The notes below the pieces were generated by a model. It saw nothing but the letters and a program-made list of their open reading frames with translations. It searched no databases and was not told where the DNA came from. A stretch of 62,495 nucleotides of DNA, the filler included, from Kipferlia bialata (lineage: Eukaryota), in assembly GCA_003568945.1 (NCBI GenBank). It is 5 parts of 5 records of this genome, joined end to end, with 100 filler letters (N's around TTAATTAATTAA, not from the genome) between each part and the next. Parts side by side here need not be neighbours in the genome. Positions count along the whole stretch, not along the records: positions 1 to 17,577 come from BDIP01000524.1; 4 more parts are not named here. One strand, written 5' to 3'. Positions 2,962-59,495 of this stretch are shown here, in pieces. Positions within the stretch are counted from its first letter, which is position 1. Each line of letters begins with the position of its first letter. The position numbers and the translations under genes were made by a program.

Positions 2962-4322
2962 CTACTCAAGGCAATCACCCAGTAACATGTCTGCTGTGAG
3001 CTGCCCCCCTGTCTCCTGCAGCAGAGACAGGTCCAGATGGAGCAGGTACCACTCATAGAAACCCTCCCCGTCCCAGTCTGAATCCATGTCGGAGTCTCCA
3101 TCATGCGTGTAATAGGGAGCAGCACTAATGTGAGTGGACGAACGCGACAGGTCTCTAGCAACTTAGTTAGTAGTTACATGATACATGTATTGATTGAATA
3201 CTATTGAACAAAACATACACGGATGGCCAAGTGATCTGAACCAGACAGAGCTCTGGTCCTATCTGGATCCCCTCAAGGTGGAAGTCCACATCCACCAGGT
3301 GCCTAATCTCATTGGACACCTCGTCAATGACAGATATCTCTCCTTCCGACACACATAGGGTGCTTCTGTTGCCCAGAGATGCAAGAAGGCCCCTGCAGAA
3401 GTAGCGGCCCACATCCAGTGGAACAAGAGCCTCCCACCCGCGTGTGTCACTGAACGATGCTACCCGAAGGCCCTCGGAAAGTGAGCGTGGGGGGGTGTCG
3501 ACAAAGGCAGTGCTGTCTCCAACTGTGATGGCAGTCGCATAGAAGTCGAGTGACCCTAGTGTGAGACGCCGCTAAGTGGAGTAACAACCATACAGGAATG
3601 TAGGGAGACCAAAGACATGGAGTAGTACTCTCAGAGTACAAGCAACAGAAGAGAGCCACCACCTCTACCTGACTGACGAGGTGGGGTGCCAGGTGCCCTC
3701 TCCCAGGTCTCACTCTCAGTGTCAAAGAGCCATAGCCCATCTGCTGAGTAGTGGAGGATCTTCTTACCGGCTGGAGACGCTGAGAGACTCTCACCAGTGG
3801 ACCCATCACACTGTGGGGGGCCAGTTGGGGGATTGCACCGGGTAAAGACGCCTGGCTGTGAGACACGGTAAGTACACTCAGAGAGAGGTCAAGCAAGTGA
3901 AAGGAATATCCCATCGCTATGTTTACAACACCTGTTCCCAGGTCGTACACGTCCGAGGAGAAAGGTGCGGGCTCTGTCAGGTCAAACTCCTCCCTGGTCT
4001 TGAGGTAGAGGCAAGAACCCACTCTGACACAGTCAGGGGGGACAACCCCACCACCTAATTCCGAGTCAGAGTGTATGTCCTCGTCAGGGGGAATGTTGGC
4101 AGCGTCAGAGGTCCTTGTCAGGGTTGGACATCCTTCCTCATACACCACTGTGTAGGCACACATGTCACAGAGGTTGAGGACGGTGTTGTGGGCTATCTGT
4201 ATGAAGTTCCGACTGTGTCCTGAGAGGTTCATCCCCCCTGAACGGTTTCTCACCCTCTCCAGCCACATGAATGAGTCTGTGGCATTGAGCAGATCTGACT
4301 CAGTCAAGAGACGGGGAGACAT
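2962..4322 (-). CDS. Hypothetical protein with few introns, possibly beta-propeller-like
   Basis: Long microsatellite-free ORFs (3447-4388, 3167-3412) and a terminal exon DLSRSSTHISAAPYYTHDGDSDMDSDWDGEGFYEWYLLHLDLSLLQETGGQLTADMLLGDCLE*. Likely start MSPRLLTESDLL at 4322. Internal exon boundaries are uncertain. Confidence 0.55.
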
Positions 4323-5294
4323 TTCCTGAGGGGTGAGGAAATGGGAAAGAGAGGGAGCTGTTCGGTCCAGTATCAGCATAAACAACAAATATGATGGGAA
4401 TAGTAGGGAAGAATGTAGGTGGGATCTCTGAGAGAGCTACGCTTCTCATATCACAAATATACACACAGATTCTCCTAAAAGTGACAGACTCACAAAGGGG
4501 ATTACAGTATGTATAGTATGACCCATAATAAGGGGGTTCTTGTGTCAGACGGAGGAACGGCTATAACGACAACCTGATAGATATGGCCCAAGTGTCAATG
4601 TCCAAACACAACACGTACACGACTCACAACTACAACTTGTAGTCTACAAGCGTCTTGGACCAAGACTCTTGGTCTGTATGGTACTGCTCAACCCTCATCT
4701 AAGTAATTCTTACCTACCTACAGTTGCACCAGCAGCTAGGGGTCGCTGTAAGAGAGTCGTATTGGCCCTACTAACTCTTTAGGGTGACTAACAGCTTGAG
4801 ATTTTCTCTAATCTGTGATTTTAGCGACGTGTAGACCTATGAACAGTGCAGGATATCTTGTCAGGTACTGTAGAGTGACTCTACTACAGTCTACAGTGTA
4901 GACAGTGATACACTCACATATTACTTGAGACGTAATGTGAGTGACAAAATGTGTGAGAGAGTAAGTCACAAGTCACATAGCAATGATCACGAGTGGGGTG
5001 ACAGGCTCTGTGACACAGAGTATTCAAAAGGAGCTTGCAGTCGGAGCAGAGTCACAGTTATGATTCATAACTTATGAACCACACCCTTCCAGGGTAATGT
5101 CTCCCCTCCTGTGTAGTACAACCGACAAATGACAGCTGAGTCTTGAGGCATGTATCTATCTCACAATATACTCCAATCACTAGAGCAACCATCAGGTCCT
5201 CTCTCTTCTCTCTAATCTCCCTCAGCCCGATACCAACTGGCTGTATAGCCTCACTGTCTGTGGGTACTGTGACTGAATCAACAGTGTCCTCTCT

Positions 5295-7273
5295 TTACTT
5301 CCCCTCTATAACCTGTCTTATCTTGCTAGCCTCGGCCTGTATGGCCTCACTGTCTGTATGGGCGGCTGTGACAGCGTCCAGTAAACCTAGCACACCACTG
5401 TCAACCATGGACTTGACGTTGGTATCTTAGGTGAGAGATATTACTGATAGTTACATCATAGTGACCTACATGAGTATAATCGAGTCAAAGAGAGGATATT
5501 GTAATATATCCTGCCACGTATAGTATATACATACCCCCTTCACAGAGTAGGGCCAGTGCCCCCAGTCCCACTGTAACAAGGTCACTATAGATGTACTATA
5601 TATGTATATAGCTAAATATATACATATATATGTAAATATGCACATATATGTATGTACCTTCACAGAGCAGGCCCAGTGCCCCCAGTCCCACTGTCACAAG
5701 GTCAATATACATATACATGTACATAGATACACGATTGTATATATATGTATATTAATGCATATACCCATACCTTCCTCTGCCATATATCCTAATGCACCCA
5801 GTCCCACTGTCACAAGGTCAATATACATATACATGTATATAGTCACACCATTGTATATATATGTATATAACTGCATCTACCCATACCTACCTCTGCCATA
5901 TATCCTAGTACCCCCAGTCCCACTGTCACAAGGTCAATATACATATACATGTATATATATACACCATTGTATATATATGTATATAACTGCATCTACCCAT
6001 ACCTTCCTCTGCCATATATTCTAGGGCACCCAGTCCCACTGTCACAAGGTCACTATGTATATGTGTATATGGACACATGTATGCATACATATGCATATAT
6101 ATGTATGTACCTTCACAAAGTAGGGCTAGTGCCCCTAGCCCTACTAAGACTAGATCACTCTGCTCCGGGTCTGTCCCGTACTGCTTGAGGGCACCCACCA
6201 CCCACTCTGTGCACCCATCACTTATCAGGGCCTTGACAGTGGACAGGCCTGGGGGTGAGATATATATATATATAGCTAGTAACGATTGAATACTCTATCT
6301 ATACAAGAAATCCAGAGTAATCCTAGCAGTATCCATGCCTGAGGGTAAGTGAGAGCACATTCTTGAACGATACCATGGATCAGTCTGAAAATACCTGCCC
6401 CTGCAAACTGCATGACCATCTCGCACATTGCCTCTGCTATAGGGGCCTCTGGGTATGTGTCCAGTGCAGCATGGGCCATTCTGTGTGTACCCATCTCATG
6501 CATGGGTTAGATTTACATAATGCTAGCAATGGGTATATTCTATCTATATGGGGTAGATATATATGGGTGTGGGAAGGGAGATATGTATATAGCAAGTTAT
6601 GGGTATATACTATCTATATGGAGTAGACATACATGGGTGTGTGCAGGGTGGGGCAGTGGCAGAGGTTGCCTAGGGCACCCAGGACAGCAGTCACCACAGA
6701 CTCGTCATCCTGGGTTAGAGACACACAGACAGTGACACTCATATACACAGACTTATACTTCTATAGTATATTGATAGCTCGTCACTGGGTGAGACACAGT
6801 AGATACCACCCACCTTGCATGTATCGAGGAATGTCACGAGCAGTCATATATATATATATATATATTACATATATGACTGTAGAGTGTATGTAACTAACCT
6901 TGCATGTATCGAGGAATGACACCAGCAGTCTCACAAAAATATCATACTGAATCTATATGTATGAATTTCTTGTATATCATGGTAACCAGGTGCAAGAGTC
7001 ACTGACCTTGCACGAATCGAGGAATGACACTAGCAGTGTGACATTGTCCATGTTAAACAGGTCGGGGCGGAAGGTCTCGTCTATCGGGTGAGTGTATATA
7101 TATGTGAGGTAACCTCTATCGGTGAGGGGAAATGTTCCACCGGATGCATATGATATTCACATACATACAAGTGAACCATGTAGTATATGATACAAACACC
7201 ACATGTAATAGTGCACGTTCAATATCTATAGAATGGTAATACACACCCCGACATGTTCCACAGGTAGGTACGG

Positions 7274-7304
<31 letters not shown>

Positions 7305-9435
7305 TAACAAACATACATGTAGAGTATGATGATGCTACACACAACATACCCACCTCCAAAGGACATGTTGCAGAGTATATGCATGGTAGAGATATGCTAT
7401 AAACGAATACATTTACATATAATATCATTGACGACACTGTAAGTATTCTTAAGAATTATATAGTATATATAAGTGCATATACCCGACACATATATAATCA
7501 TGATGACACTGAAACTATTCTTTTGTATCATAAAGTATATACAAATATATTTACCCCCGAATGACATGTTCCAGAGTATATGTATGGCATATATATATAC
7601 AACATACGTATATGTATATACAGATAATCACAGATGACACCAAAAGTATTCTTAGGTACTATAGAGTGTGCCCACCTCCAAATTACATGTTCCACAAGAT
7701 GGTGGCTGCAGCTGCCACAGATGCCAGGGCCTCCTCAGCTGGGTGGGGGTATGCCTAGTGTCAGTGTTACTACAATATATTGAGTTATCAGTTCATACAC
7801 TATGGTAATATACCACCCAGATGCCAGGGCCTCATCTGATGGGTGGGGGTATGCCTAGTATCAGTAACTACAGTGTATTAAGTTAGACGATCATACACTG
7901 GGTGATACATCAGATGCAAGTCCCTCCTCAGAGGTAGATATGCCTTCTGTAAGTGTTAGTAAACTATATATATACATGAACACACATACATTCTTGTAGG
8001 GGTTTTGCCTGAACTGTCAGTGTAAGCATAAAAGACCTTGCTGTATGACACATGTACCGTATTGCATGGAATTTTCTATTCAACATCACTAAAACAGAGT
8101 ATTCTTTATGTATAATACGATACTCTACGACGCATTACCGTGAGTATCCTGATGCCAGGTCGTCACTATATACTACATATAGATAGTGATACTGATACTA
8201 CATGAGGTGGGGTATGGTACCACCTTCAATATCAGCTATGTACCCTATATATACTAGATGGTATTACCGTGAGTAACCTGATGCCAGGGAATGACTATAT
8301 ATTATATGAGGAGAGGAGTGCTATACTTGCCTTAAATATCAGATATATATAATATATACATATACTAGACTGTATTACCTTCAGTATCCTGATAGCCAGA
8401 TCCTCACTATACGATATATGAGTACTATGCATACCTTCAATATCAGATATATACACTCTATGAGTACTCTACATACCTTGAGTACCCTGATGGCCAGGTC
8501 GTGACTACACACTACTTGAGTTCTATAGTATATATTATATAGTATATGAGTATATAGTATGACTACACCCACCTTCAATATCCTGATGGCCAGGTCATGA
8601 CCATTTACTATATGAGTACTATACATACCTTCAATATACTAAGTACTCATATTCTAATCTATAAGTACTATACCCACCTTCAATACCCTGATGGCCAGGT
8701 CGTGACACTCCGTCTCAAACAGATGGGCCTTGGTCTCATCCTCGGCTGGAGGGGTGAGAGAGTTTAGAGGATGTATACATACATATATAGATAGATATAT
8801 ATAGATATATATTCCATGTATATACTTTAGAGAGATGGGCCCTGGTCTCATCCTCGGCTGATGTCAGTAGTCTATGTACAGTATATATAGAGCTGGAGGG
8901 GTGAGAGAGTGTACAGCATGTATATAGGAATCTGTTACTATATATTCCATGTATATACTCAAGAGGGATGGGCCCTTGGTCTCATCCTCGGCTGGAGGGG
9001 TGAGAGATTGGACAGTATATATAGAGCTGGAGGGGTAATGGAGTGTAGAGGATATATATATGAACCTGTTATTATATATTCCACGTATATAATTTAGAGA
9101 GTGGGGCCTTGGTCTCATCCTCGGCTGGAGGGTCAGACACACTTAGCACACAGATATATACACTATATAACAGTGATGGGTAGTGGTCTAATGAGTAGTA
9201 TAGGTAAACGTGTAATTGACAATATGCTATATTACTCTATATATCATTGACTGCACTATATGGTTGACTGATGTCATGCAATTCACTTGTATGTGTATCT
9301 CATCATTCCCATACGCTCTGTGTCCTTGATACATATACACACACATATATATATGTGTGTGTGCGTGTGAGTGTGTGTGTCTACGTACGTTATGTGTCCT
9401 TGAGTCGTGTACAATCATCCTTCGTCATATCGTAT

Positions 9436-16254: not shown

Positions 16255-17128
16255 CCTAAGTATGGACATGGTCAGAGGGTCAAAGCAAGGCCTGATTCAG
16301 TATCATAGTAAGATATATACATATGTGTGTATATATACTGAGGGCCTGGTACTATCAGCACAGAGAGGAACTGATATATATTGATACACCTGTGACAATG
16401 ATATATATACTTACCTGGTACTATCAGCCACAGTGACATCCTCTGCACTCTCTGGCTGGGGGGTCTCTGGCTGGGTGTGAGTAGGGAACATATATAGAGA
16501 GAGAATGGCAGAGAGGTAGAGAGAGGACGAGAGAGAGAGAGAGAGAGAAGGGGAGAGAGAGAGAAGGGGAGAGAGAGAGACCTAACAGATCAAACATAAC
16601 ATATTGGATGGGGGATTGAACCAGTGTACATGAGGGAGAGGGAGACAGAAAATGAAACCAATGCAGACATTGTATGGACGTCGTATAAAAGAACTCCTGG
16701 ACTATCATGCATGTGTCAATGCCCACATATATATATACCATATGCCTTAAGAGTCATAAGTCAAGACCCACCTTGACTCTGATGCACGTGTATGATAGAG
16801 AGAGTGGGGAGAGAGAGAGAGAGGGGAGAGAGAGTGACAGAGTGAGAGACACACCTTGACCCTGATGCACGTGTCTGTGTCACACTCCTCCCTGCACACA
16901 GGGCAGACACGCTCATCCTTGCCATCCAGCCATTCACCGAGACACTCTGTGTGGAACACATGCTGGCAGGGGGTGAAGAGGAAGGGGAGGGGGCGGTCTG
17001 GAGATGAGTGTATCAGTAAATTTCGGCACTCACTTAATAGACGGGGTAAATGCCTCCTTATACAAATAATATATTCCAACTGACACGTATGACCCACCTT
17101 CACCGCATATCTGACACTTCAGAGGCAT
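5295..17128 (-). CDS. RING-H2 finger plus armadillo/HEAT-like repeat protein (putative E3 ubiquitin ligase), many short exons
   Basis: Exons 1-2 give MPLKCQICGE|DRPLPFLFTPCQHVFHTECLGEWLDGKDERVCPVCREEC (C3H2C3). Later exons are ARM-like helices (EEVVTAIVQAGAIPLLLAVLDGHADNAE; DLVLVGLGALALLCE; KSMVDSGVLGLLDAVTAAHTDSEAIQAEASKIRQVIEGK*). The span could contain two genes. Confidence 0.7.
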
Positions 17129-20700: not shown

Positions 20701-23700
20701 TATTGTACTATATATGTATATGTACTGTATACACTATCAAGACCAAGGAGGACAGATCCACAGAGAGAGGTCTCAGTATATGTCTCTCGTATCATATTAT
20801 ATATATTAATTGTGGTATATATGTACTACATATGAGTACTCTATATATACTGGGAACCCAGAATTGATTTCTGCCCATTACTCAGAATACTATTACTCAT
20901 TCCTCAGATGCTGAGTCTGCCTGTGTTGTCCTATATCCTTAATACCTATCTATATATATTTTATGTCTGAATGTCTTGTATTGCCTCCTGATTGTATACT
21001 ATACCAGCTATACATATACTTTGTAAATACTGGATCCCAGAATTGATGTCTGTCTATTGAATACTCTTGATTGATTCCTCATTCCTCAGATGCTGACTCT
21101 GCCGGTGCTGTCCTGTCCTACAGACTGGCCCTGCTGTCACACTGCATACAGGGACTGTGATATGTATATATATAGTTTATCATATAATATATATATTATT
21201 TAATATATATGTGTATGTAAATTATTTTACTATATATAATGTGTATATATGTATATATAAGTGGCCCTGCTGTCACACTGCATACAGGGGCTGTGGTACG
21301 GATAGCGTCCTCCTACCTACCTCACAACCACGTATAGTATATATGTGGTGTATATATGTGGGCGTGGAGGAGTTATATGCAGGACCTGCCCCAATTCAGG
21401 AAAGACGGTGTGTGGTCTCTCTGTCACTACTCTACCCTCCCCTCCCTCACCCCTAGTACTGCTGCCAGGGGTGGTAGTATAACTATTGTTGAAATGCATA
21501 TATAGTGTATTTCTTCCTCCCCTCCCTCACCCCTAGTGCTGCTGCCAGGGGTGATGCACAGTGGAATTCGGATCTGCAGAGGTATATTAGTAAGATTGGT
21601 ATTCTATGTGACTGGTATAGTAGTATAATATCTCCATGCCGGTACTACGTTGTTGTATATATAGTCATAGATGCAGTATATCTAGCATAGTTTATTGTGC
21701 CCAGCGGGACTGGGAGCTCCAAGGGTATGATACAGTGCATTTTTCACCGGATGGTTTCAGTCACAAGTCATCAAATATCTCAGGTCTTTCTAGTGTCACC
21801 TCACCCCCAGGAGTGTTGTGTCTCTGTCCAGATGGGTGGATATGTCTTAGTTCTATATCGTGTAATTAATATATATATATCTATCCATGTACTCNNATGT
21901 CTTAGTTCTATATCGTGTAATTAATATATATATATCTATCCATGTACTCCTAGCTCATTCTCAGGAGTGTTGTGTCTCTGTCCAGATGGGTGGTGGGCAC
22001 ATCCGTGGTCAACTCGGTGAGTGCATCATGTCTCGCTCTCCTCTACGTCCCAATTGCCAATATTCTTCACTCTTCAATTACCCTGCCATCACCACCTCAC
22101 AGTCTCTCTCTCTCTCCGCCTAACCCCAGACCTCACTTATTAGCACTGCAGAGGACCATTTCTCACTGACCAATCTCTCTCTCTCACTCACTTTCTCTCT
22201 CTCTTATCTCAGACTGCCCTGGTTAGCACTGCAAATCTCTCTCTCTCTCCGTCTCTCCCCCCTCTAGCTTCCTCATATCAGACTGCCCTGGTTAGCACTG
22301 CAGAGGACCTTGTCTCACTGGCCAACATCCTGCACAAGCACAGCCAGGGAGTGCTGGCCACACAGATGCTGAGGTATTGATATTGTATATAGTAGTGTAT
22401 GCATATATATACTATTTGGAAGATGTTAACCGTGAAATATATTCTAATGTATATATCAAATATATACAACCACAGTCAGGGAGTGCTGGCCACACAGATG
22501 CTGAGGTATATATATAATTGTATTAATAAAATATATTAATAATGTATAAAAGTGTATAATAGATATATTATTATACCACACAGATGCTGAGGTCAGTAGT
22601 GCGAATGGTACTAGTACATATGAATGGAACACAGTAGGAATAGTATAGTAATTAATTCTATGTACATCAGAGAGTGCTGGCCACACAGATGCTCAGGTGA
22701 TATGCTCTGTTATGGCCGTTGTTTAGCTGTTCACTCATTAATTGCAACTATGTCTCTCTCTCTCTCTCCCTCTCTCTCTCTCTCTCTAACCCAGGTCTGT
22801 CTCTGCATGCCCTGTGTACCTGTCCCTGTCAGACCAGAGGGCACGGGATGCATTCACACAGGCCATAGGGTGTGTAGTAGTATATACAGTGAACATATTG
22901 TGTGTATCACACTCATATATGCATGGTTCTATTCATCAAGATATGACAGCTCCATACTGTCAACAGGTGTTCTTCCTTCATTTTCTCTATCACCAAGTAT
23001 TGTGTCAGTCATTGAGAGCATCCCTATATCCGCTGACGCAGGACCTTTACGGCGCAGGACAGTGGAACAAGTCAGACTGATAGGGGGAGGGAGAGAGAGA
23101 GAGAGAGGAAGCCTCAGCCGGGAGAGTCAAGGTATCCACAAGTTAATGTTCAGCAAATCCATTCTTGTACGTTTTCATTCTCTATCTATGAAACCAGCTG
23201 GCACTTGGCTTCTGATACCAGGCGTATATGGGTGTCTGTGAGAGACAGTCCCAGGGAGGACGTTCCACAGTTCCAGGTATAGCCATATATACCATATATA
23301 TACCATATATATACCATATATATACCATATATATCTTGACTTGTTCACAGTCGCGCAATGAAGCCTCCAATGATTCCCAAGGAATTCTGAGTGTTTTCCT
23401 ACTCTTTAGACAATTGCTGTGTTGTAAGACCGGATACAGTGTTTAATATCGTATGCCTCCCCACCCTAGGTCCCTGTCCCGCCCGATATATATTGTATAT
23501 ATATTGATATATATATTGTATATATATATATTGTATAGATATTACCTATTGGACTGACCCCCAGGTCCCTGTCCCGCCCGATGCAGATGCAGAGGGTCTG
23601 CTAGCCAGGGTGTGGGCCATGCGCAATGACCCTGAGGTATATACACCCTGACGACATGTAAATACTGATGGCATTTAAGTGCCAATATTGTATGGAAATT

Positions 23701-38380: not shown

Positions 38381-38515
38381 GGAAGAAGCAGAATAGATAG
38401 ACACGTGGGTCAAGTAGTAGTGGTAAGGGGTAGATTCTTCTCATTCAGTCATCGAGCGTCTGAGCATCCAATGATCGTATCGTGCCCCCACGCTGATTCG
38501 ACGTTCTTCTTTCCT
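38352..38515 (+). repeat. Diverged direct repeat, copy A
   Basis: TCAGGGTCTCCAAGG..GAGAGTAGGGAAGAAGCAGAATAGATAGACACGTGGGTCA...TAGATTCT..TCATT.AGT.ATCGAGCGT..ATCGTATC.TGCCC.CAC.CTGAT aligns with 43426-43600. Confidence 0.8.
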
Positions 38516-38721
38516 CCTGACCTACTAGATTTGGACATAGAAGGAGGACGTGAGACAGATACATACCGATATGTAATGTCTCGTACAGCGTACTTTCAGC
38601 ATAAACCTCTATAGGCCAACATTCCACAAGAACGGATAGATAAGGCCACTTCAAGGTGATAACATTCATACAAAAACATACATATTATTTACTATCAAAA
38701 CTAGCCCGAAAGGATAGAGGC

Positions 38722-41700
38722 CTATTGGGGCACACTACCAAGCAGCTCTTGGCTGACTCTCTTATAGAAAGCCAGTGACCTGGGGTTCTGGACCTCTTCC
38801 ATGAGGATAAAACACTTCTTATACCAGATCTTCGCCTTTGAAATGCAGGAAGCACCGTCTTCATGGTTTCCATGCTCAATGAGCTCTTTCCCTTGTGAAG
38901 CAAACATGCCACCCAAGTTGCCACAACAATCAGCCATACCCTTCTTCTCCAAAGGGATTGCACCCTCATATACCCTAAGAGCCTTCTGCATGTATCTCAA
39001 AGCACAACCCCACATATGCTGCTCCGCATAGAGGCGGCCCAGGCTGCTCGCAGCTTTTCCATGTGTGTCTGTGAAGAAGGGTAGGTCCCTGCTCATCAGA
39101 AACGCTTCCCACTGGGACGTAAATGCCATTACGAACCACTCCTCCCATCGGGTGTCAGCAGGGTTCTCTCTGTGGTCAGAGCACTGCTTGGACGCCTGCA
39201 AACACCTGGAGCCGAAGTCATGGAGGGTTGAGGCCACCTGGATGAAATCTTGGCACTCTTTGGCAGCTTCACACTCTAACCACAGCAGGCATATAGCCAC
39301 TTCAAGCTTCCCATTCTTCGCCATGGCATTTGCACGGTGTCCCTCAAGACGTGTCTGACTGAAGTAGTCCGGAGAGTTCTGTACGGCTGCGTCCAGTACT
39401 TCTTCAGCATCACCATGCTTCTCCTCCATCTGCAGTGCCACTCCCTTCACTCTGAGAAGGCTCGCACGTGTGCTGGCCGAGAGGTCCTGGAGGTGGTTGT
39501 TGGCCTTATCAAGGAGAAGAGAGGCATCATGAGGCCTCCATTCATCCAGACACGCTTGTGCCGCAGAGCAGAGAAGAATGACAGCCCGCTCAAACTCGGC
39601 TCCCAGGAGGAGATACTCTGCTGCATCAATCCTCTCAAGGGGATCTGAGGACGTGTAGAACCTTCCCTGTAGTTCAGTGCCCAGGCGACAAAACAGAGTT
39701 ACGTCCGCCTCTGCGTTCCAGCCAGGGCTCTGGCGGCGGCGCAGCCTCCCAACAAGGGTGGACACAAACGCACCCACCACTGGTAGAACCACGTATAGCC
39801 GCTTGGCACCAATAAGGTGCTTGGGGCCACTGTCCACCTCCCAGTCCCTCTGTTCCTGCACAAGAGAGTAGTTGACTAGCCGTAGCAGGACATCGCCATC
39901 CTCATCCCCATCTCTTCCAAGCAGTGCCATGAACTCTCGATCCATGGGGCGGAGCACAAGAGTGGCACGATACAGGAACTGCTGACAGTCATCACTTAAA
40001 CACCCCCAGAGCTCTTGCAGAGACAGATCACTCCGTATCGACCTGGTCACGCTCTGAAGGTGGCCATATAGAGAATCATACTCTGTTCTCCCCGGAACAG
40101 CATCTCGGGAAATGAGACTCTCAAGCAAATCAGCTCCTCTGTGGCAATGCAGGAGCTGCTTCTCTGCCAGCCTCCTTCGACAGTCGTATGAGAGTTGCCG
40201 GAGGTGAGGGAACCACTGCATGAGGCGCAGTACAGTATGGGTTCCCAATGGACCAACAGGGATGCACTCCCTGTCTAGGATATCGGGGTTGCGGTACCGA
40301 GTGCTGGCCACTAACACCAGTCTGGCCTGCCTGGCAGAGGAAGATAGGTACTTCCACACATACTCACACTCATGACTCCGCCACTGACCAATCCGCCTAC
40401 CAGCAGGATGCATGAGGGACTCCATGTTGTCAAGGTAGACCACAAGCTGGGGGCCTTTACGCTTCTCTATGATGGTCTCGAGAGCCATTTCAAAGTCTAC
40501 AGTCTCCCACTCACTACGCCCCACCTTCCCTCTCTCCTTGATTTGTCGTTCAAGACATCGTCGCTGCTTTGTAGTCCCATGTCGCTGAATGTAGCAATGT
40601 ACACTCGACGTGATGTCATGCACTAGCCTTCTGGGGCTCATCTCCTTGCACCAGATAGGCAGGAGGGGCAGGGTGTCCTTGTGCCCTCGAGTGTCCCTCT
40701 GAAGCATGAGAGCAGAGTGGTACGCCAGAGCTGTCTTGCCAAGGCCTCCAAGTCCGTGAAACACGAAGACATGTACTGGAGGAAGACTAGTGCGGTGCAA
40801 CCGCCGGACAAGGTGCCGCTCTCGTCTGCGACCGAGGAAGCCAGTGGCCAGGCATACTTCATTCCCGTCTTTGTCTGTCACATATGTACGCTCTGGTGGT
40901 GCCAGTTGGTTGAGTTCTGTGGAGTCACCCAATTCTACCCTCTTGCTCAGGGGCCAGCCACGGCCACCCCGGGAGAATACCACAAGCTGGGCCCAAGCAA
41001 AAGGATACTTTCTGAGGTTATCCCTCACAAGGGGACTCTGACCCTCACTCCCTAACAGCAGCCTACGACGTGCTGCCGCAACTGCCTCGAAGGTGAACAT
41101 TCCCCTGCTGATACCAGCATACACATCGGCTTCTGCGGCAATGCACAGACAATCCGCCACAGTACCATAGTAAGCAACCACATGTGTGATTCCTTGCTGG
41201 TGGAGATGAAAGGCGGTGGTGGTGTCCGTGCCATGGGCTGTGTCGAGTGTGTTTCCGTGACACCCCCCAAGGAAACAGAACTGAGGCGCAAGGGTACAAT
41301 CCCCACTGATAGCTTCCATGAGGTTGTGCACTGAAACACTATCACTGTACCCTTCATCGTCCTCAAACTCTAGGTGACCAGGACGTCCATGTCCTGAGAA
41401 GTGGATTCCGGTGGGTTTGGAGTCTCCAATCGCACCACAGAACTCAGACACAGTCCCAAGATCAGTAAATGACAGGCCCACTTGGGTGTGCAGGGCCTGA
41501 CTGATGCGCCAACTCTCTTCCTCGTAGTTGAGAGGATACTTGCCACTGATCTCGGGTGATGACACATTCACCAGGAGTGACATCGGGGTGGATGCCTTGC
41601 GGAGTGGCCTCTCAAACCCCTTGACACAGCACACAGGGGAGGTACGCACGACATCAACACGTCCAGTCTTGACTACGTACTGATCCTGGATTTGGAGCAA

Positions 41701-42039
41701 CTCCCATGGTAGGCTAAGCACTCTGGCATCACTACTCTCAATAATATAGAGACGCCGGGGTCCCTCTGCAGCTCCTAGGTCCCCATCTAAGTGGAGTATC
41801 TTAGCGAACCACTTTCCGAGCCCTGACGCGCATGCGTTAAGTCTTTCCCTGTCGCTCCCACTCGTTTCCTCCGACACATGCGCCAGAAAGTATTCAAGTG
41901 CCTTTCCAACACGAGACCCAGGTTGGAAGGGTGATCGGTGGAGATGGCTGAACTCTCCTGAACTGACCCTCAACCCACAGGCCTCAGAGGAGATCTTGAA
42001 GTGTCTGTCCTCGGCATCTATACGCCCTCGCCCAACCAT
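38722..42039 (-). CDS. CHAT (caspase-like) protease - STAND/NB-ARC-like NTPase - TPR protein, 1105 aa, intronless
   Basis: CHAT motifs LSLPWELL, IHFSGHG (catalytic His), FLGGCHG (catalytic Cys) and PFAWAQLVVF. NTPase motifs FLGRRRE, Walker A HGLGGLGKT, Walker B VVYLDNME and VASTR. C-terminal TPR-like helices (ASSLGRLYAEQHMWGCALRYMQKALRVYE; CGNLGGMFASQG). Confidence 0.9.
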   Translation of the reverse strand: MVGRGRIDAEDRHFKISSEACGLRVSSGEFSHLHRSPFQPGSRVGKALEYFLAHVSEETSGSDRERLNACASGLGKWFAKILHLDGDLGAAEGPRRLYIIESSDARVLSLPWELLQIQDQYVVKTGRVDVVRTSPVCCVKGFERPLRKASTPMSLLVNVSSPEISGKYPLNYEEESWRISQALHTQVGLSFTDLGTVSEFCGAIGDSKPTGIHFSGHGRPGHLEFEDDEGYSDSVSVHNLMEAISGDCTLAPQFCFLGGCHGNTLDTAHGTDTTTAFHLHQQGITHVVAYYGTVADCLCIAAEADVYAGISRGMFTFEAVAAARRRLLLGSEGQSPLVRDNLRKYPFAWAQLVVFSRGGRGWPLSKRVELGDSTELNQLAPPERTYVTDKDGNEVCLATGFLGRRRERHLVRRLHRTSLPPVHVFVFHGLGGLGKTALAYHSALMLQRDTRGHKDTLPLLPIWCKEMSPRRLVHDITSSVHCYIQRHGTTKQRRCLERQIKERGKVGRSEWETVDFEMALETIIEKRKGPQLVVYLDNMESLMHPAGRRIGQWRSHECEYVWKYLSSSARQARLVLVASTRYRNPDILDRECIPVGPLGTHTVLRLMQWFPHLRQLSYDCRRRLAEKQLLHCHRGADLLESLISRDAVPGRTEYDSLYGHLQSVTRSIRSDLSLQELWGCLSDDCQQFLYRATLVLRPMDREFMALLGRDGDEDGDVLLRLVNYSLVQEQRDWEVDSGPKHLIGAKRLYVVLPVVGAFVSTLVGRLRRRQSPGWNAEADVTLFCRLGTELQGRFYTSSDPLERIDAAEYLLLGAEFERAVILLCSAAQACLDEWRPHDASLLLDKANNHLQDLSASTRASLLRVKGVALQMEEKHGDAEEVLDAAVQNSPDYFSQTRLEGHRANAMAKNGKLEVAICLLWLECEAAKECQDFIQVASTLHDFGSRCLQASKQCSDHRENPADTRWEEWFVMAFTSQWEAFLMSRDLPFFTDTHGKAASSLGRLYAEQHMWGCALRYMQKALRVYEGAIPLEKKGMADCCGNLGGMFASQGKELIEHGNHEDGASCISKAKIWYKKCFILMEEVQNPRSLAFYKRVSQELLGSVPQ

Positions 42040-43425
42040 GTCAGCCAGAGGGAATGCAAGTCAAGTGGGATTCTCCTCTGACTCCGTGGCTACGAGCCTG
42101 GAGGTGGGTAGAGACTGGGGGTAGACACAAACGGATACCAGAGTGTATCTATAGAGTATACGCACCCTGCAAGTGACTGTTTGTAACCTCAGGGAGATGC
42201 TTTCACCCTACAGTGAGTGACCCTATGGGGGAGATACAGACGCTGGGTTTGCACCAGGGGGGGGAGGGGGGATATGAGTGTGGAGTGTATACGGTGGGGA
42301 AAACAGTGGATGATGTGTATATATGGCAGACACAACACATAGAGAGAGAGGGGATGGTGTATACATGGCAGACACAGAGGGAGAGAGAGGATGGTATGTA
42401 TATATATAGCAGGCACATAGAGAGAGAGGGTGTGTGAGTGATGGTATGTATACACAGCAGGCACATAGAGAGAGAGAATGGGAGCCATACTAGTGACCTA
42501 CAGCACTGGAGTGGGTAGAGTGTACACAATACGGAGAATGAAAGAGAGAGACCTTGCGCGGTGGAATGTATGTGGGAGAGAGAGAGAGGAGAAGCATGTG
42601 CGACCTGGGGGGGGGGGCGGGGGAGGCATAGAGAGATGTATAGTATGGTGGTTGAGAGAGAGAGGCGTATATCATGACAAAATCCAGGGGGGGGGGGGAC
42701 ACGGCAGGGAGAAGATAACTTGTCTACGGAGACGGGTGGAATACTGCAGGGGACAGTGTCAGTCACGTACTGAGGGTTCACTATGGAGTACACAGTATAC
42801 CTTGAAGAACCGGGAGTGCAGTCCAGGGCTCCTGGTAGTGTTCTGGAGTCAGTGACGCTGGACTGAAATAGTAGATCCATAGTATTGAAGGGGCAGAGTG
42901 AGACATCGTCGTGTATATCATGGGACAGAGGGAAGAGTGTTGTGTATACAGTGTAGGACAGAGAGAATAGGGGCTGGGGATGGTGTCACCCAAGTCAGGG
43001 GTGATAAGTCGAGATATGGTAATGATATATATATGTCTGTTATTATATGGTAATGATATATATACCCTTGACAGCTCAGTGTATACTAAGGTCAAGCATG
43101 CGATATACAAATACATTTTTGACATCCAGGCTTGTACAAGAAACAAATACACTCATGTAGTCAGTGTGGTTGTGCCCACACTCATGTCTGTAGGACGAAG
43201 AGGGAAAGCCGCCCAATTTCAAACTCTGCCACGAGGCAAGCTCCCTGCAAATATCTCACACTACCGTAGCTCCATAACTCACTTAAAAAATACACGCAAG
43301 AGGACCAAGTGACTCACTTAAGGAGGTGGAGGGACTACCGGTACTGATGCACCCAGCTGATTCATTTATGAGAGGGTCCAAAAACGGATCCCACACATAG
43401 TACAACGATTGGCATTATTCGTCCG

Positions 43426-45151: not shown

Positions 45152-45458
45152 CCCACTTCTCTCTCTCTCTCTCTCTCTCTCTCCTTCTCTCTTCTCCACT
45201 AGGTGTATTACTCACTCCACAGGTCATCCGGCTGCATATGTAGATATAACGACATACAGGATATATATATACTATATTACATTTTGTATACACTCATGCC
45301 TAGGTCATCCAGCCCTCTGAGGACCAGGCCTCTGCCTATATACATACAGTATATATATATATATATATATGTACTATATATATGTATATATACACTTATA
45401 CCCAGGTCATCCAGCCCTCTGAGGACCAGGCCTCTGCCTATATACATACAGAATACAG

Positions 45459-45491
<33 letters not shown>

Positions 45492-46227
45492 GCTTTATAT
45501 ATATGTATATATTATGTACCTATACCCAGGTCATCCAGCCCTCTGAGGACCAGGCCTCTGCCTGTGACACCATGGAGATACCAGACCTGGTACAGGCCCT
45601 AATCGATGGTACATACAGGATATCTATAGTATATAGTATATAGTATATGTATACACTATAGTAGTGTGACACCATGGAGATACTAGACCTGGTGACAGCA
45701 CTGATAGATGGTACGTATATATATACATATTTTACAAAATGTACAGTATTCATAGAGTGTATAGAGTATGGAGATACCAGACCTCGAACAGGTGCTGATA
45801 GATAGTATGGGGATATATACTGTATGCATGGATATACCATACATGGCTATACCATACTAGTATACATTGATATAGATTGATGAATACACAGTACCACCCA
45901 GACCGCAATCTCAACTTCTTAAGTATCTCTTCCTCTCTCTCTCTCTCTCTCTCTCTTTCTAGACCCTTATATTAGGCTACAATGTCAACNNNNNNNNNNN
46001 NNNNNNNNNNNNNNNNNNNNNNNATATTAGGCTACAATGTCAACTTTTTGGCCAGACTCTCTCTCTCTCTCTCTCTCTCTCTAGACCCTTATATTAGGCT
46101 ACAATGTCAACTTTTTGGCCAATGGGCAGACTGGGAGTGGCAAGACACACACAGTGTTTGGGCCTCCAACAAGTACGACACTCTCTCTCTCTATGTATCA
46201 AGTATGGATATATACTACTATTCCCTA

Positions 46228-56490: not shown

Positions 56491-56834
56491 GATAGTGTCT
56501 GAGTGCACTCACAAACGTGCTGTGTAGAGAGAGGCAGACTCATATCGGAATAGTCGATCTAGCCCAAACCCTTTTTCCAGAGTGATTCAGACAAAAATCC
56601 AGTAGATGTGGTATATATACACTATAGGGCAGAATAGACACAGATAGGACGCCTACAAGGGTTATATTTCTCTTGGGCAGCACAGAATCACACATATTTT
56701 CATTTCTAGGGCTTTGTGGCGGGATTGATCGTCAAAATCAAATTGATTAGATTAAACATCTGAGAATCAACTTTAGTCATCAATCAGAGAGTGATCATGC
56801 CGCGGCCTCCTTTTTGTCCAACACACTCAGAAAG

Positions 56835-59457
56835 ATGTCCGAGTCTGCCGTGGAGACCTTCGAGGTGAGTGCATAAGTGGTATATGTACTTCTGAGTGGG
56901 CTGTGGAGCCTCAGGTTGTGAGAATTGGAGAAATGTGATTTGAGTTCCGTTTCCGAGTCCTTTCAGTTGTGTTATCGCCGCGAGGGCGACTCTTTTGGTC
57001 TCAACTTGGAGTTGGTTGCTTTATGCTTCTTAGTTGTTGGTTATAATTGTTGTTGCAGCATGTTTAGTGGCACTGTACCAGATATGTCATCAGCTAGTCT
57101 CACCCCCAGTTCGAGGCTCAGATCAGCCAGCTGATGAGCCTCATCATCAACACCTTCTACTCCAAGAAGGAGGTGTTCCTCAGAGAGCTGATCTCCAACG
57201 CCTCTGATGCTCTGGACAAGATCAAGTATGTGTGTGGTGTATCTACATATATATCTTGTCAGGCATAGTCGTGTAGTGGTGTTGTAGAGTGTGGATACTC
57301 CCTCTTATCTCAGGTACCAGTCCCTCACTGACGAGTCTGCCCTTGCCACCACCGGTGACATGAAGATCCAGATCATCCCCGATCTCGAGAACAAGACCCT
57401 CATCATCCGTGATACCGGTATCGGCATGACCAAGGCCGACCTCATCCAGGTATACACATACCTATATGTATAGTAGATGGCCTCTATTTGAATGTGTCAT
57501 ATAGTCACAGACACAGAGGTTCTTGCCCCCCCCCCCCCCTCCCCCCCACTCATCATTTTCTCAATACTCGTCTGCCCTCTCTTCTTGTATCCTCTCCCTC
57601 ACCCCAGAACCTTGGAACCATCGCCAAGTCCGGCACCAAGCAGTTCATGCAGATGATCAACGAGGGCGCCGACCTCTCCCTCATTGGACAGTTTGGAGTG
57701 GGATTCTACTCTGCCTACCTCGTGGCCCACACTGTGGACGTTGTCTCCAAGAACAACGACGACGGATGCTTCCTCTGGAGGTCCACCGCCGGCGGCTCCT
57801 TCACTGTCGAGCCCGTCGAGCGCGAGGTACACTACTCCCCTCTCTCTCATTTTATTCTCTACACTCTTTTTCATCCGTTTTTGTCTTCAGCGATGACCTC
57901 ACCCTCCAGGACATGAAGCGCGGAACTGAGATCATCCTTCACATGAAGGAGGACCAGATGTCCTACCTCGAGGAGGCCTCCATCAAGGACCTCGTCAAGA
58001 AGCACTCCCAGTTCGTCGGATTCCCCATCGAGCTCATGACCACCAAGGTACAGCCATGCACACACTCTCTCTCTCTCTCTCTCTCTCTTGTATATATATG
58101 TGTGTGTATATCACACCGTTGCTGACCCACAGGAGGAGGAGGAGGAGGTCCCCGTTGAGGAGGAGGACGTCGAGGCCGAGGAGAAGAAGGAGGGCGAGGT
58201 ATGTACATGCACATATATACATATACAGTCATATGTTCTCATACAATAGTGTGTCTCTATATGCATATCTCACCCCCAGGAGGGAGACGCCGAGGAGGCC
58301 TCTGAGGAGGAGGAGGAGGGCGAGGAGAAGAAGCCCAAGACCACCACCATCAAGAAGGAGGTCAAGGAGTTCGAGCTCCTCAACGAGCAGACCGCCATCT
58401 GGACCCGCCCCGCCTCTGAGGTCACCGAGGAGGAGTACGCCGCCTTCTACAAGGTACAGTATAGTGTATATATATTGTGTACACATATAACTACCTGTCA
58501 CTCTATGCCTGACCCCCTCTCACCCTCCAGGAGCTCACCAACGACTGGGAGAAGCACCTTGCCGTCAGGCACTTCAACGTCGAGGGACAGGTCCAGTTCC
58601 GTGGAGTTCTCTACATCCCCGGCCGTGCCCCCAACGACATGTACGTCTCTCTCTCTCTCTCTCTCTCTCTCATGGACACTTGATACTTGATACTCTCTCA
58701 CCCTCCAGGTTCGAGTCCAAGAAGAACTCTCTCTCTCTATATATATACATATATAATCCTTAATGCTCTCCCTTTGCACCCTCTCACCCCCCAGGTTTGA
58801 GTCCAAGAAGAAGCACTCTGGCATCAAGCTCATGGTGAGGAAGGTGTTCATCACCGACGAGCTCGCCGACCTCGTGCCCGAGTGGCTCGGATTCGTCCGC
58901 GGAGTCCTCGACTTCAACGACCTCCCCCTCAACATCTCCCGTGAGACCCTCCAGCAGTCCAAGCTCGTCAAGAAGATCAGGAAGCAGGTCGTCAAGCAGG
59001 TCCTGACCCTCCTGTCCGAGCTCGCTGAGGACACCGAGGTTCGTGGTTCGATTCCCTCTCCTGTTATATTTCTCTTCTGACTCCCAGGAGTACAACAAGT
59101 TCTACAAGCTCTTCGGCCGCAACCTCAAGCTTGGAATCCACGAGGACTCTGCCAACAGGGACAAGCTCGCCAAGCACCTCCGCTACCACTCCACCAAGGT
59201 ATATATTACATATATACATTATATACACCATGTTATTCATATAGAGTGGTGCTGACCCCCAGGCCGACGAGGAGATGACCTCTCTCGACGACTACGTCAC
59301 TCGCATGCCCGAGCACCAGAAGAACATCTACTACCTCACTGGTGAGTCCCGTGCCGAGATTGAGGCCTCTCCCTTCCTGGAGCGCCTTGCTGAGAAGGGC
59401 TTCGAGGTCCTTTACATGGACGAGGCCATCGATGAGTACGCCCTCACCTACCTCAAG
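56835..59457 (+). CDS. HSP90: Cytosolic heat shock protein 90, 3'-truncated by the contig end
   Basis: [48 protein letters not shown]..., [36 protein letters not shown], acidic linker, DLPLNISRE. No signal peptide; 11 exons visible. Confidence 0.97.
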
Positions 59458-59495
59458 GTATATACATATATATACACATACATATATTCCTCATC

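Follow-up and report, generated by a model that had tools for sequence, protein, structure and literature searches.

Silent echoes of exon ends in introns of Kipferlia bialata and their coding-like divergence

In Kipferlia bialata, a fornicate metamonad protist, the borders of exons are repeated as partial copies, or echoes, in the neighbouring introns, and these echoes are real and widespread among the introns that we modelled in a window of 62,495 nucleotides (the whole stretch of DNA analysed, chained from short contigs). They are present in the DNA, carry donor bases of their own, are spliced out, diverge from their exons in a coding-like manner and, at exon 26 of a gene with RING and ARM families (Pfam), include residues of a paralog. 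We believe, with a probability of roughly 55%, that each echo is a silent, tandemly copied piece made up of an exon end and the intron start next to it, arising through recombination repair templated by diverged coding versions of the exon.

The gene with the clearest example, referred to here as the RING-ARM gene, was modelled by hand (Table 1), and the final 117 residues of the model are those of the annotated KIPB_002922 (100% identity to P0001). The exon at 6112-6246 has 100% identity to KIPB_002922, and another exon of the window to KIPB_002924. The 3' end of the gene is found in spliced RNA despite a TAA in frame in exon 22 and an AT acceptor at exon 25, and the gene may be a decaying duplicate. 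Two echoes of exon 22 have TCA and TCC (Ser) in place of the TAA. The idea that TAA is read as a sense codon derives from the hexamitid code and was set aside because genes in this window terminate in TAA; a bypass of this stop by splicing through an echo was also rejected, with no in-phase acceptor found by eye. At 3668-5428 (minus), one RNA contig links the last RING-ARM exon with the reading frame that follows, crossing a long untranslated region and an intron that is spliced out; the gene next to the RING-ARM 3' end has a second copy, approximately 83-88% identical, which has equal DNA depth and is also found in RNA.

Table 1. Positions, within the window, of the RING-ARM gene and of the features at and around its exon 26.
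Feature	Position	Strand	Basis
RING-ARM gene, 27 exons, 720 codons	5297..17128	minus	hand-built model
RING finger exon	16855..16997	minus	Pfam zf-RING_2, E=2.5e-09
In-frame TAA in exon 22	7683..7685	minus	gene model; echoes of exon 22
Exon 25 acceptor, AT instead of AG	6502..6503	minus	gene model
Exon 26, true exon; the echoes derive from its final 46 nt (6156-6111)	6111..6248	minus	open frame, AG/GT ends; at the next exon, RNA contig 9 has a loose end that is the same as the exon 26 end
31-residue run (DGCTE...VGLGAL) identical to the paralog, ending where the GYMAEE and LLCE tails part	6127..6219	minus	next longest identical run is 9
Intron 26, removed whole by splicing with all five echoes	5426..6110	minus	RNA contig record 9 and gene model
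Echo 1, DLVTVGLGALEYMAEE + GT, paralog-like tail	6003..6051	minus	sequence comparison
Echo 2, DLVTVGLGVLGYMAEV + GT, paralog-like tail	5887..5935	minus	sequence comparison
Echo 3, DLVTVGLGALGYMAEE + GT; GLGALGYMAEE is the exon end of the paralog	5771..5819	minus	sequence comparison
Echo 4, DLVTVGLGALGLLCE + GT; partner in the quoted exon-echo pair	5658..5703	minus	sequence comparison
Echo 5, DLVTVGLGALALLCE, donor GT lost	5538..5583	minus	sequence comparison
116-nt tandem array with GYMAEE units	5675..6056	.	Tandem Repeats Finder: 3.3 copies, 91% matches
Exon 27, coding to the stop	5297..5425	minus	RNA contig and gene model

Downstream of exon 26, five echoes of 46-49 nt start at 6051, 5935, 5819, 5703 and 5583 on the minus strand, and a GT follows four of the five, being absent only at the 5583 echo. 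According to Tandem Repeats Finder the 116-nt array is made of the three middle units, and the spacers after echoes 1-3 have identities of 0.90-0.96 among themselves and 0.61-0.66 to the other spacers. The initial annotation had reported the five echoes and, between the real exon end and the echo at 5703, nine synonymous changes among 12 differences; our recount agrees, with nine synonymous third positions and three non-synonymous changes. Its assumption that neutral decay would hit all codon positions equally is too weak a null, because the true exon keeps changing at synonymous sites: nine synonymous changes among 12 have P=0.0034 with two neutral copies, but P=0.068 with an exon that changes synonymously and an echo that decays, so that the quoted pair alone is not significant. 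Within the first 30 nt the echoes differ from one another at 1-4 positions and from the exon at 9-10, and since eight differences are common to all five, these are not independent observations. The synonymous pattern exceeds chance only after pooling across echoes, and the pooled bias holds.

A source for part of this variation is visible in the paralog KIPB_002048, with which the RING-ARM model is collinear (314 of 646 residues identical, 49%). At the exon-26 position the paralog protein reads DLVLVGLGALGYMAEE, with the exon end LGALGYMAEE, and the GYMAEE tail of echoes 1-3, extra codon included, equals the coding sequence of the paralog as compared at the protein level. Exon 26 has an identity of 0.82 to the paralog and the other exons 0.14-0.71; at the protein level it holds the run of near-identity amid diverged paralogs by which gene conversion is recognized, and the 31-residue run is likely a gene-conversion tract. 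Over the RING-ARM gene, the echo has the paralog residue at 10 of the 41 sites at which exon and paralog differ, where 4.7 are expected (a single mis-extended, gapped echo accounts for four of the 41 sites); in one instance, an echo reads LVGHCAE, the paralog LIGHCAE and the exon TVVQCAE. Of 61 amino-acid differences, 20 are at sites where the exon matches the paralog and the echo alone has changed. Judging from these comparisons, the exon-26 example appears best explained by exchange with a paralog, and the economical history, we infer, has two exchanges with KIPB_002048. One would have brought in the GYMAEE unit, which was then triplicated, and the other would have overwritten the body of the real exon up to GLGAL, leaving echoes 4 and 5 as probable copies of the gene's earlier exon-26 end. 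In echo 5, nine differences from exon 26 fall in the first 30 nt and one in the last 16, a split that fits this history and is not significant (Fisher P=0.13). The earlier proposal of divergent alleles captured by unequal exchange therefore survives in part: exchange fits, but the visible partner at exon 26 is a paralog and not an allele. A search for shorter fragments of the KIPB_002048 family found none. In a representative protein search other Kipferlia ARM proteins were at 25-39% identity, and the echo-type end is absent from the three other Kipferlia ARM sequences inspected; two scans of metagenomes for relatives gave 0 confirmed among 267 pattern matches and 0 matches, respectively.

The survey of echoes covers six hand-built genes with 91 introns, all in this window. 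Two of these models, gene 2 and the RING-ARM gene, were compared with proteins, gene 2 being in agreement with its annotated protein save for three exon edges. Exons were aligned ungapped to their flanking introns, with reversed introns as the control, and we found 139 echo matches compared with 4 in the controls. Before the count we removed five, three that we judged spurious and two that occurred in duplicate across an N gap, leaving 134. Echoes occur in 58 of the 91 modelled introns, and the median intron length is 380 nt with echoes and 145 nt without. On the donor side 60 of 86 echoes reach the exon end with a GT, and on the acceptor side 31 of 48 start at the exon start after an AG; the median exon part is 23-29 nt. 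The nearest donor-side echo almost always lies at a spacing of 69-155 nt. In HSP90 (56830-59460, plus), a highly conserved gene with short introns, echoes are present in one of the nine introns checked (exon limits approximate), which suggests that the number of echoes depends on the class of gene or on its expression.

Several other observations were made along the window. At exon 7 of gene 2 (21090-21300, plus), an echo has TG|GT where the exon has TG|AT, and the GT used by the exon seems to lie three bases further upstream, which makes the exon one codon shorter, in agreement with annotated protein P0091. In the kinesin gene (45203-45608, plus), the intron at 45223-45529 opens with a copy of the start of the next exon, of which this region holds two identical 34-nt copies, a candidate for intron gain by tandem duplication. 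A long intron-free reading frame at 38500-42100 (minus) is GC-richer and unlike its intron-rich neighbours. Over the whole window the observed/expected dinucleotide ratios are 0.39 for CG, 0.53 for AA, 0.52 for TT and 1.29 for TA, the TA excess being unusual, and several gaps have the same short linker between runs of N, marking contig joins.

A comparison by codon position had been proposed in the initial annotation, and across the six genes the differences are far from even, with 80, 61 and 222 at the first, second and third positions of the 134 echoes and a pN/pS of 0.30 (exon bootstrap 0.23-0.41). With one echo per exon side, pN/pS is 0.36 (P=0.013 against the synonymous-exon null). The donor-side value is 0.24 (0.19-0.33; 86 echoes, 43 exons), with none of 4000 bootstrap replicates at 0.5 or above; it is 0.23 (0.14-0.41) when the RING-ARM gene is left out and 0.23 (0.13-0.46) when echoes are compared with echoes, and the RING-ARM gene without exon 26 gives 0.30 (0.24-0.39). 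Acceptor-side echoes have a pN/pS of 0.60 (0.39-0.99), compatible with plain decay. A second method, using fixed windows of 15-24 nt, gave 0.32-0.34 for donors, with upper bounds of 0.46-0.50, and 0.47-0.54 for acceptors. The difference between the two sides is clear by local alignment, but we do not rely on it because it is not significant in fixed windows (P=0.08-0.15). Amino-acid changes in echoes are milder than neutral ones (BLOSUM -0.12 versus -0.45, P=0.03), and synonymous distance is as high as 0.5-0.7 in some echoes. A RIP-like or mutation-spectrum bias was rejected, the exon-to-echo changes being spread over all 12 types (kappa ~1.45), and pN/pS is 0.36 (0.28-0.50) even under a kappa of 4. 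In an exon-8 echo (14246-14216, minus), Ser is TCA in the exon and AGC in the echo, three base changes that leave the residue unchanged.

Plain slippage duplication could also produce tandem copies, with the echo decaying neutrally, the exon changing only synonymously and the extra bias being noise from a few related echoes. We consider this doubtful. The quoted pair taken alone, the acceptor-side echoes, the fixed-window upper bounds and the indels in echoes, 8 of 10 of which are frameshifting, are all in keeping with it, but neutral decay after duplication, simulated through the same detector, yields a pN/pS of 0.54-0.69, well above the donor-side value, and slippage is unable to place the GYMAEE of the paralog, with its extra codon, into an echo. 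In 30 one-haplotype settings with two-way conversion (60 replicates each), the ratios were 0.42-1.02 for exon versus echo and 0.63-1.08 for echo versus echo. The donor side thus shows a moderate to strong excess over decay and the acceptor side a weak one or none, and the size of the excess depends on the method.

Indirect selection would be another way to keep echoes codon-compatible, if frequent contraction or conversion moved them into coding position and harmful ones were purged. Echo 5 is a mosaic that is exon-like at its 3' end. Moreover, 20 of the 86 donor echoes do not differ from their exon, while echoes without synonymous change have intron parts at background identity (0.58), which points to conversion that is still ongoing. 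Simulations in which selection acts only when an echo takes over nevertheless do not reproduce the observed ratios, and we regard this explanation as improbable. Neither the order of an array nor the intron parts could be used for dating: the nearer echo is the more similar one in 20 pairs and the farther in 20, and intron-part identity is uninformative as a clock, being near background with a weak trend in the wrong direction (rho +0.32).

The echoes now look silent, non-coding and decaying. Echo donors match positions +3..+6 of their own intron at 2.41 (1.51 when shuffled), and because the echoes carry these donor bases the template was genomic or unspliced, which rules out mRNA or cDNA as the template. 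Stops are not significantly depleted (2 versus 3.9 expected, P=0.24), and in-frame and out-of-frame echoes are equally biased (pN/pS 0.23 and 0.24). Their use as alternative, translated exon ends or micro-exons, suggested in the initial annotation, is quite improbable. It would agree with a nearest donor echo that lies in frame at 23 of 40 exons (P=0.0014 in a post hoc test), with the GT kept in 60 of the 65 echoes that reach the exon end and with a frame that is open from exon 26 through echo 1; however, 19 of the 23 in-frame extensions contain stops and only 4 are stop-free, and the equal bias in and out of frame and the frameshifting indels also speak against use. The five intron-26 echoes have no usable acceptors: three have no AG within 40 nt upstream, the other two have an AG 1 nt upstream that is out of phase with the nearby exonic GT, and none offers both an acceptor and a donor that keep the frame. 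In silent-cassette antigenic variation, silent copies are converted in a programmed way into a single expressed locus for a surface protein, and the idea of swappable cassettes as an adaptive system does not suit echoes that are found in the RING-ARM gene, in kinesin and ketopantoate reductase genes and in further genes unrelated to these. What stands of the view that echoes were recently coding is that the two lineages, exon and echo, were both coding as they diverged, as indicated by donor-side ratios below the neutral simulations and by a GYMAEE tail that is coding in the paralog; the echoes themselves are silent now.

Contigs from two runs (X1 and X2) of one sample were aligned to 3600-5598 of the window, a stretch that includes, of the echoes, only echo 5. 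X2 represents spliced RNA since its contigs skip two GT..AG introns. An X2 contig enters exon 27 from the real exon 26 end, the only end seen at this junction, and within the stretch no X2 contig lies on echo 5, with the reservation that contigs drop rare isoforms; to this extent, the echo variants that the initial annotation proposed to look for in RNA did not appear. No allelic variants were found in the DNA contigs over the aligned part. In X1, an unbranched 146-nt DNA contig has two echo pieces 116 nt apart at a depth of 557 (460 for a neighbouring single-copy contig), which supports the tandem array at read level, even though X1 consists of short reads and may be the window's own source. 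Mis-assembly of allelic or paralogous reads in tandem is an unlikely origin for the echoes, and the one that we credit least: only short-read contigs are available, but this X1 contig spans two echoes, the echoes are partial with intron-like sequence before them, and HSP90 has echoes in just one of nine introns.

Recombination templated by diverged coding versions is the reading that we prefer. Homologous-recombination repair would make and reshuffle the echoes, with a diverged, still coding version of the same exon as its template; diverged coding copies would pair via conserved exon sequence and be resolved out of register, and captured echoes would then decay neutrally. It is the coding-like codon-position signal that argues for another coding copy, rather than the same strand, as the template. 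Where a gene has no visible paralog, other alleles from a recombining and very diverse population would supply the template or later replace the real exon, and allele capture in single-copy genes is plausible. Such a source needs very high synonymous diversity because synonymous distances reach 0.5-0.7, very high for alleles, and this counts against our reading. So do the acceptor-side echoes, which fit plain decay and are unpredicted by a recombination-template model, and the fixed-window upper bounds, which come near the neutral-decay range. The 20 sites at which the echo alone departs from the paralog, and the stops, which are not significantly depleted, point the same way. The data behind the reading come from one strain and, for the paralog, from its protein; a weak search for a second copy of gene 2 found none (1 protein among 33 candidates). 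Metamonads are described as being without NHEJ, and all fornicates examined as having lost Rad51A and kept two Dmc1 paralogs (PMC8516963), and Dmc1 is reported to tolerate mismatches (PMC8682777). A broader scheme, possible but decidedly tentative, is that mismatch-tolerant, Dmc1-only repair of breaks beside splice donors would copy exon ends genome-wide from alleles or paralogs into introns and back, making introns an archive of coding alleles that feeds the exons and one genome a sample of the population.

With echoes in about two thirds of the introns modelled, and without a GC-rich setting, K. bialata offers a culturable microbial system for exon stuttering, the anatomy of which was described in birds in 2026 (PMC12954441). 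The codon-position signal gives a new handle on the mechanism, and the chicken data could be tested in the same way. Should the echoes come from alleles, a single genome would suffice to estimate synonymous diversity and past recombination, and there would be a bearing on the claim that the intron richness of K. bialata is ancestral. Echoes are, moreover, a source of error in gene prediction and in the assembly of short reads. In the genome paper, which counts 124,912 introns (PMC5874029), the string 'duplicat' is absent and the passages on 'intron' or 'repeat' make no mention of echoes. Our literature search, with supplements and most subscription papers outside its reach, found no report of echoes in K. 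bialata or of a synonymous bias in such copies.

Among known systems, the first of the repeated units spans an exon-intron boundary in the human F7 IVS7 minisatellite, where the most upstream donor is used and those downstream are silent, as here, but that case is a single locus with identical pseudo-sites and without codon-level divergence (PMC1557585). Ectopic paralog conversion, interallelic minisatellite mutation (PMC2599865) and two-allele heterogeneous duplications (PMC6121789) illustrate that recombination can set diverged versions in tandem, as is proposed here; the Kipferlia unit differs in being a 20-60 nt exon edge that lies in an intron, in many unrelated genes, and is unexpressed. 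Intron gain by tandem genomic duplication (reviewed in PMC3443670) shares local duplication across AG|GT-like junctions, whereas most Kipferlia echoes lengthen existing introns without a new splice junction. The closest likeness is to exon stuttering on chicken dot chromosomes (Hron et al. 2026, PMC12954441), described as border-anchored partial exon copies with a median of 36 bp in 190 of 5,572 dot-chromosome introns (3.4%), in birds and also in gerbils, with repair or gene-conversion mechanisms offered as speculation. Both systems have partial copies of the adjacent exon, running from the exon border, in imperfect tandem clusters in the neighbouring intron; in Kipferlia, border-anchored copies exceed the reversed-intron control (139 versus 4), and imperfect local tandem units are seen in the 116-nt array (91%) and in the intron medians of 380 and 145 nt. 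Length polymorphism within species is a feature of stuttering in chicken (PMC12954441). Kipferlia differs as a metamonad protist with TA/CT-rich introns and echoes in 58 of 91 modelled introns; GC is 0.39-0.44 over most of the RING-ARM gene, with TA-rich introns, and in PMC12954441 the GC-rich setting of stuttering is an association and does not belong to the three features named there. The main text of that paper does not contain 'synonymous', 'codon', 'protist' or 'Kipferlia', and coding-like divergence and paralog-derived units are absent from its description. The Kipferlia echoes thus match the anatomy of exon stuttering, and coding-like divergence is their distinctive part.
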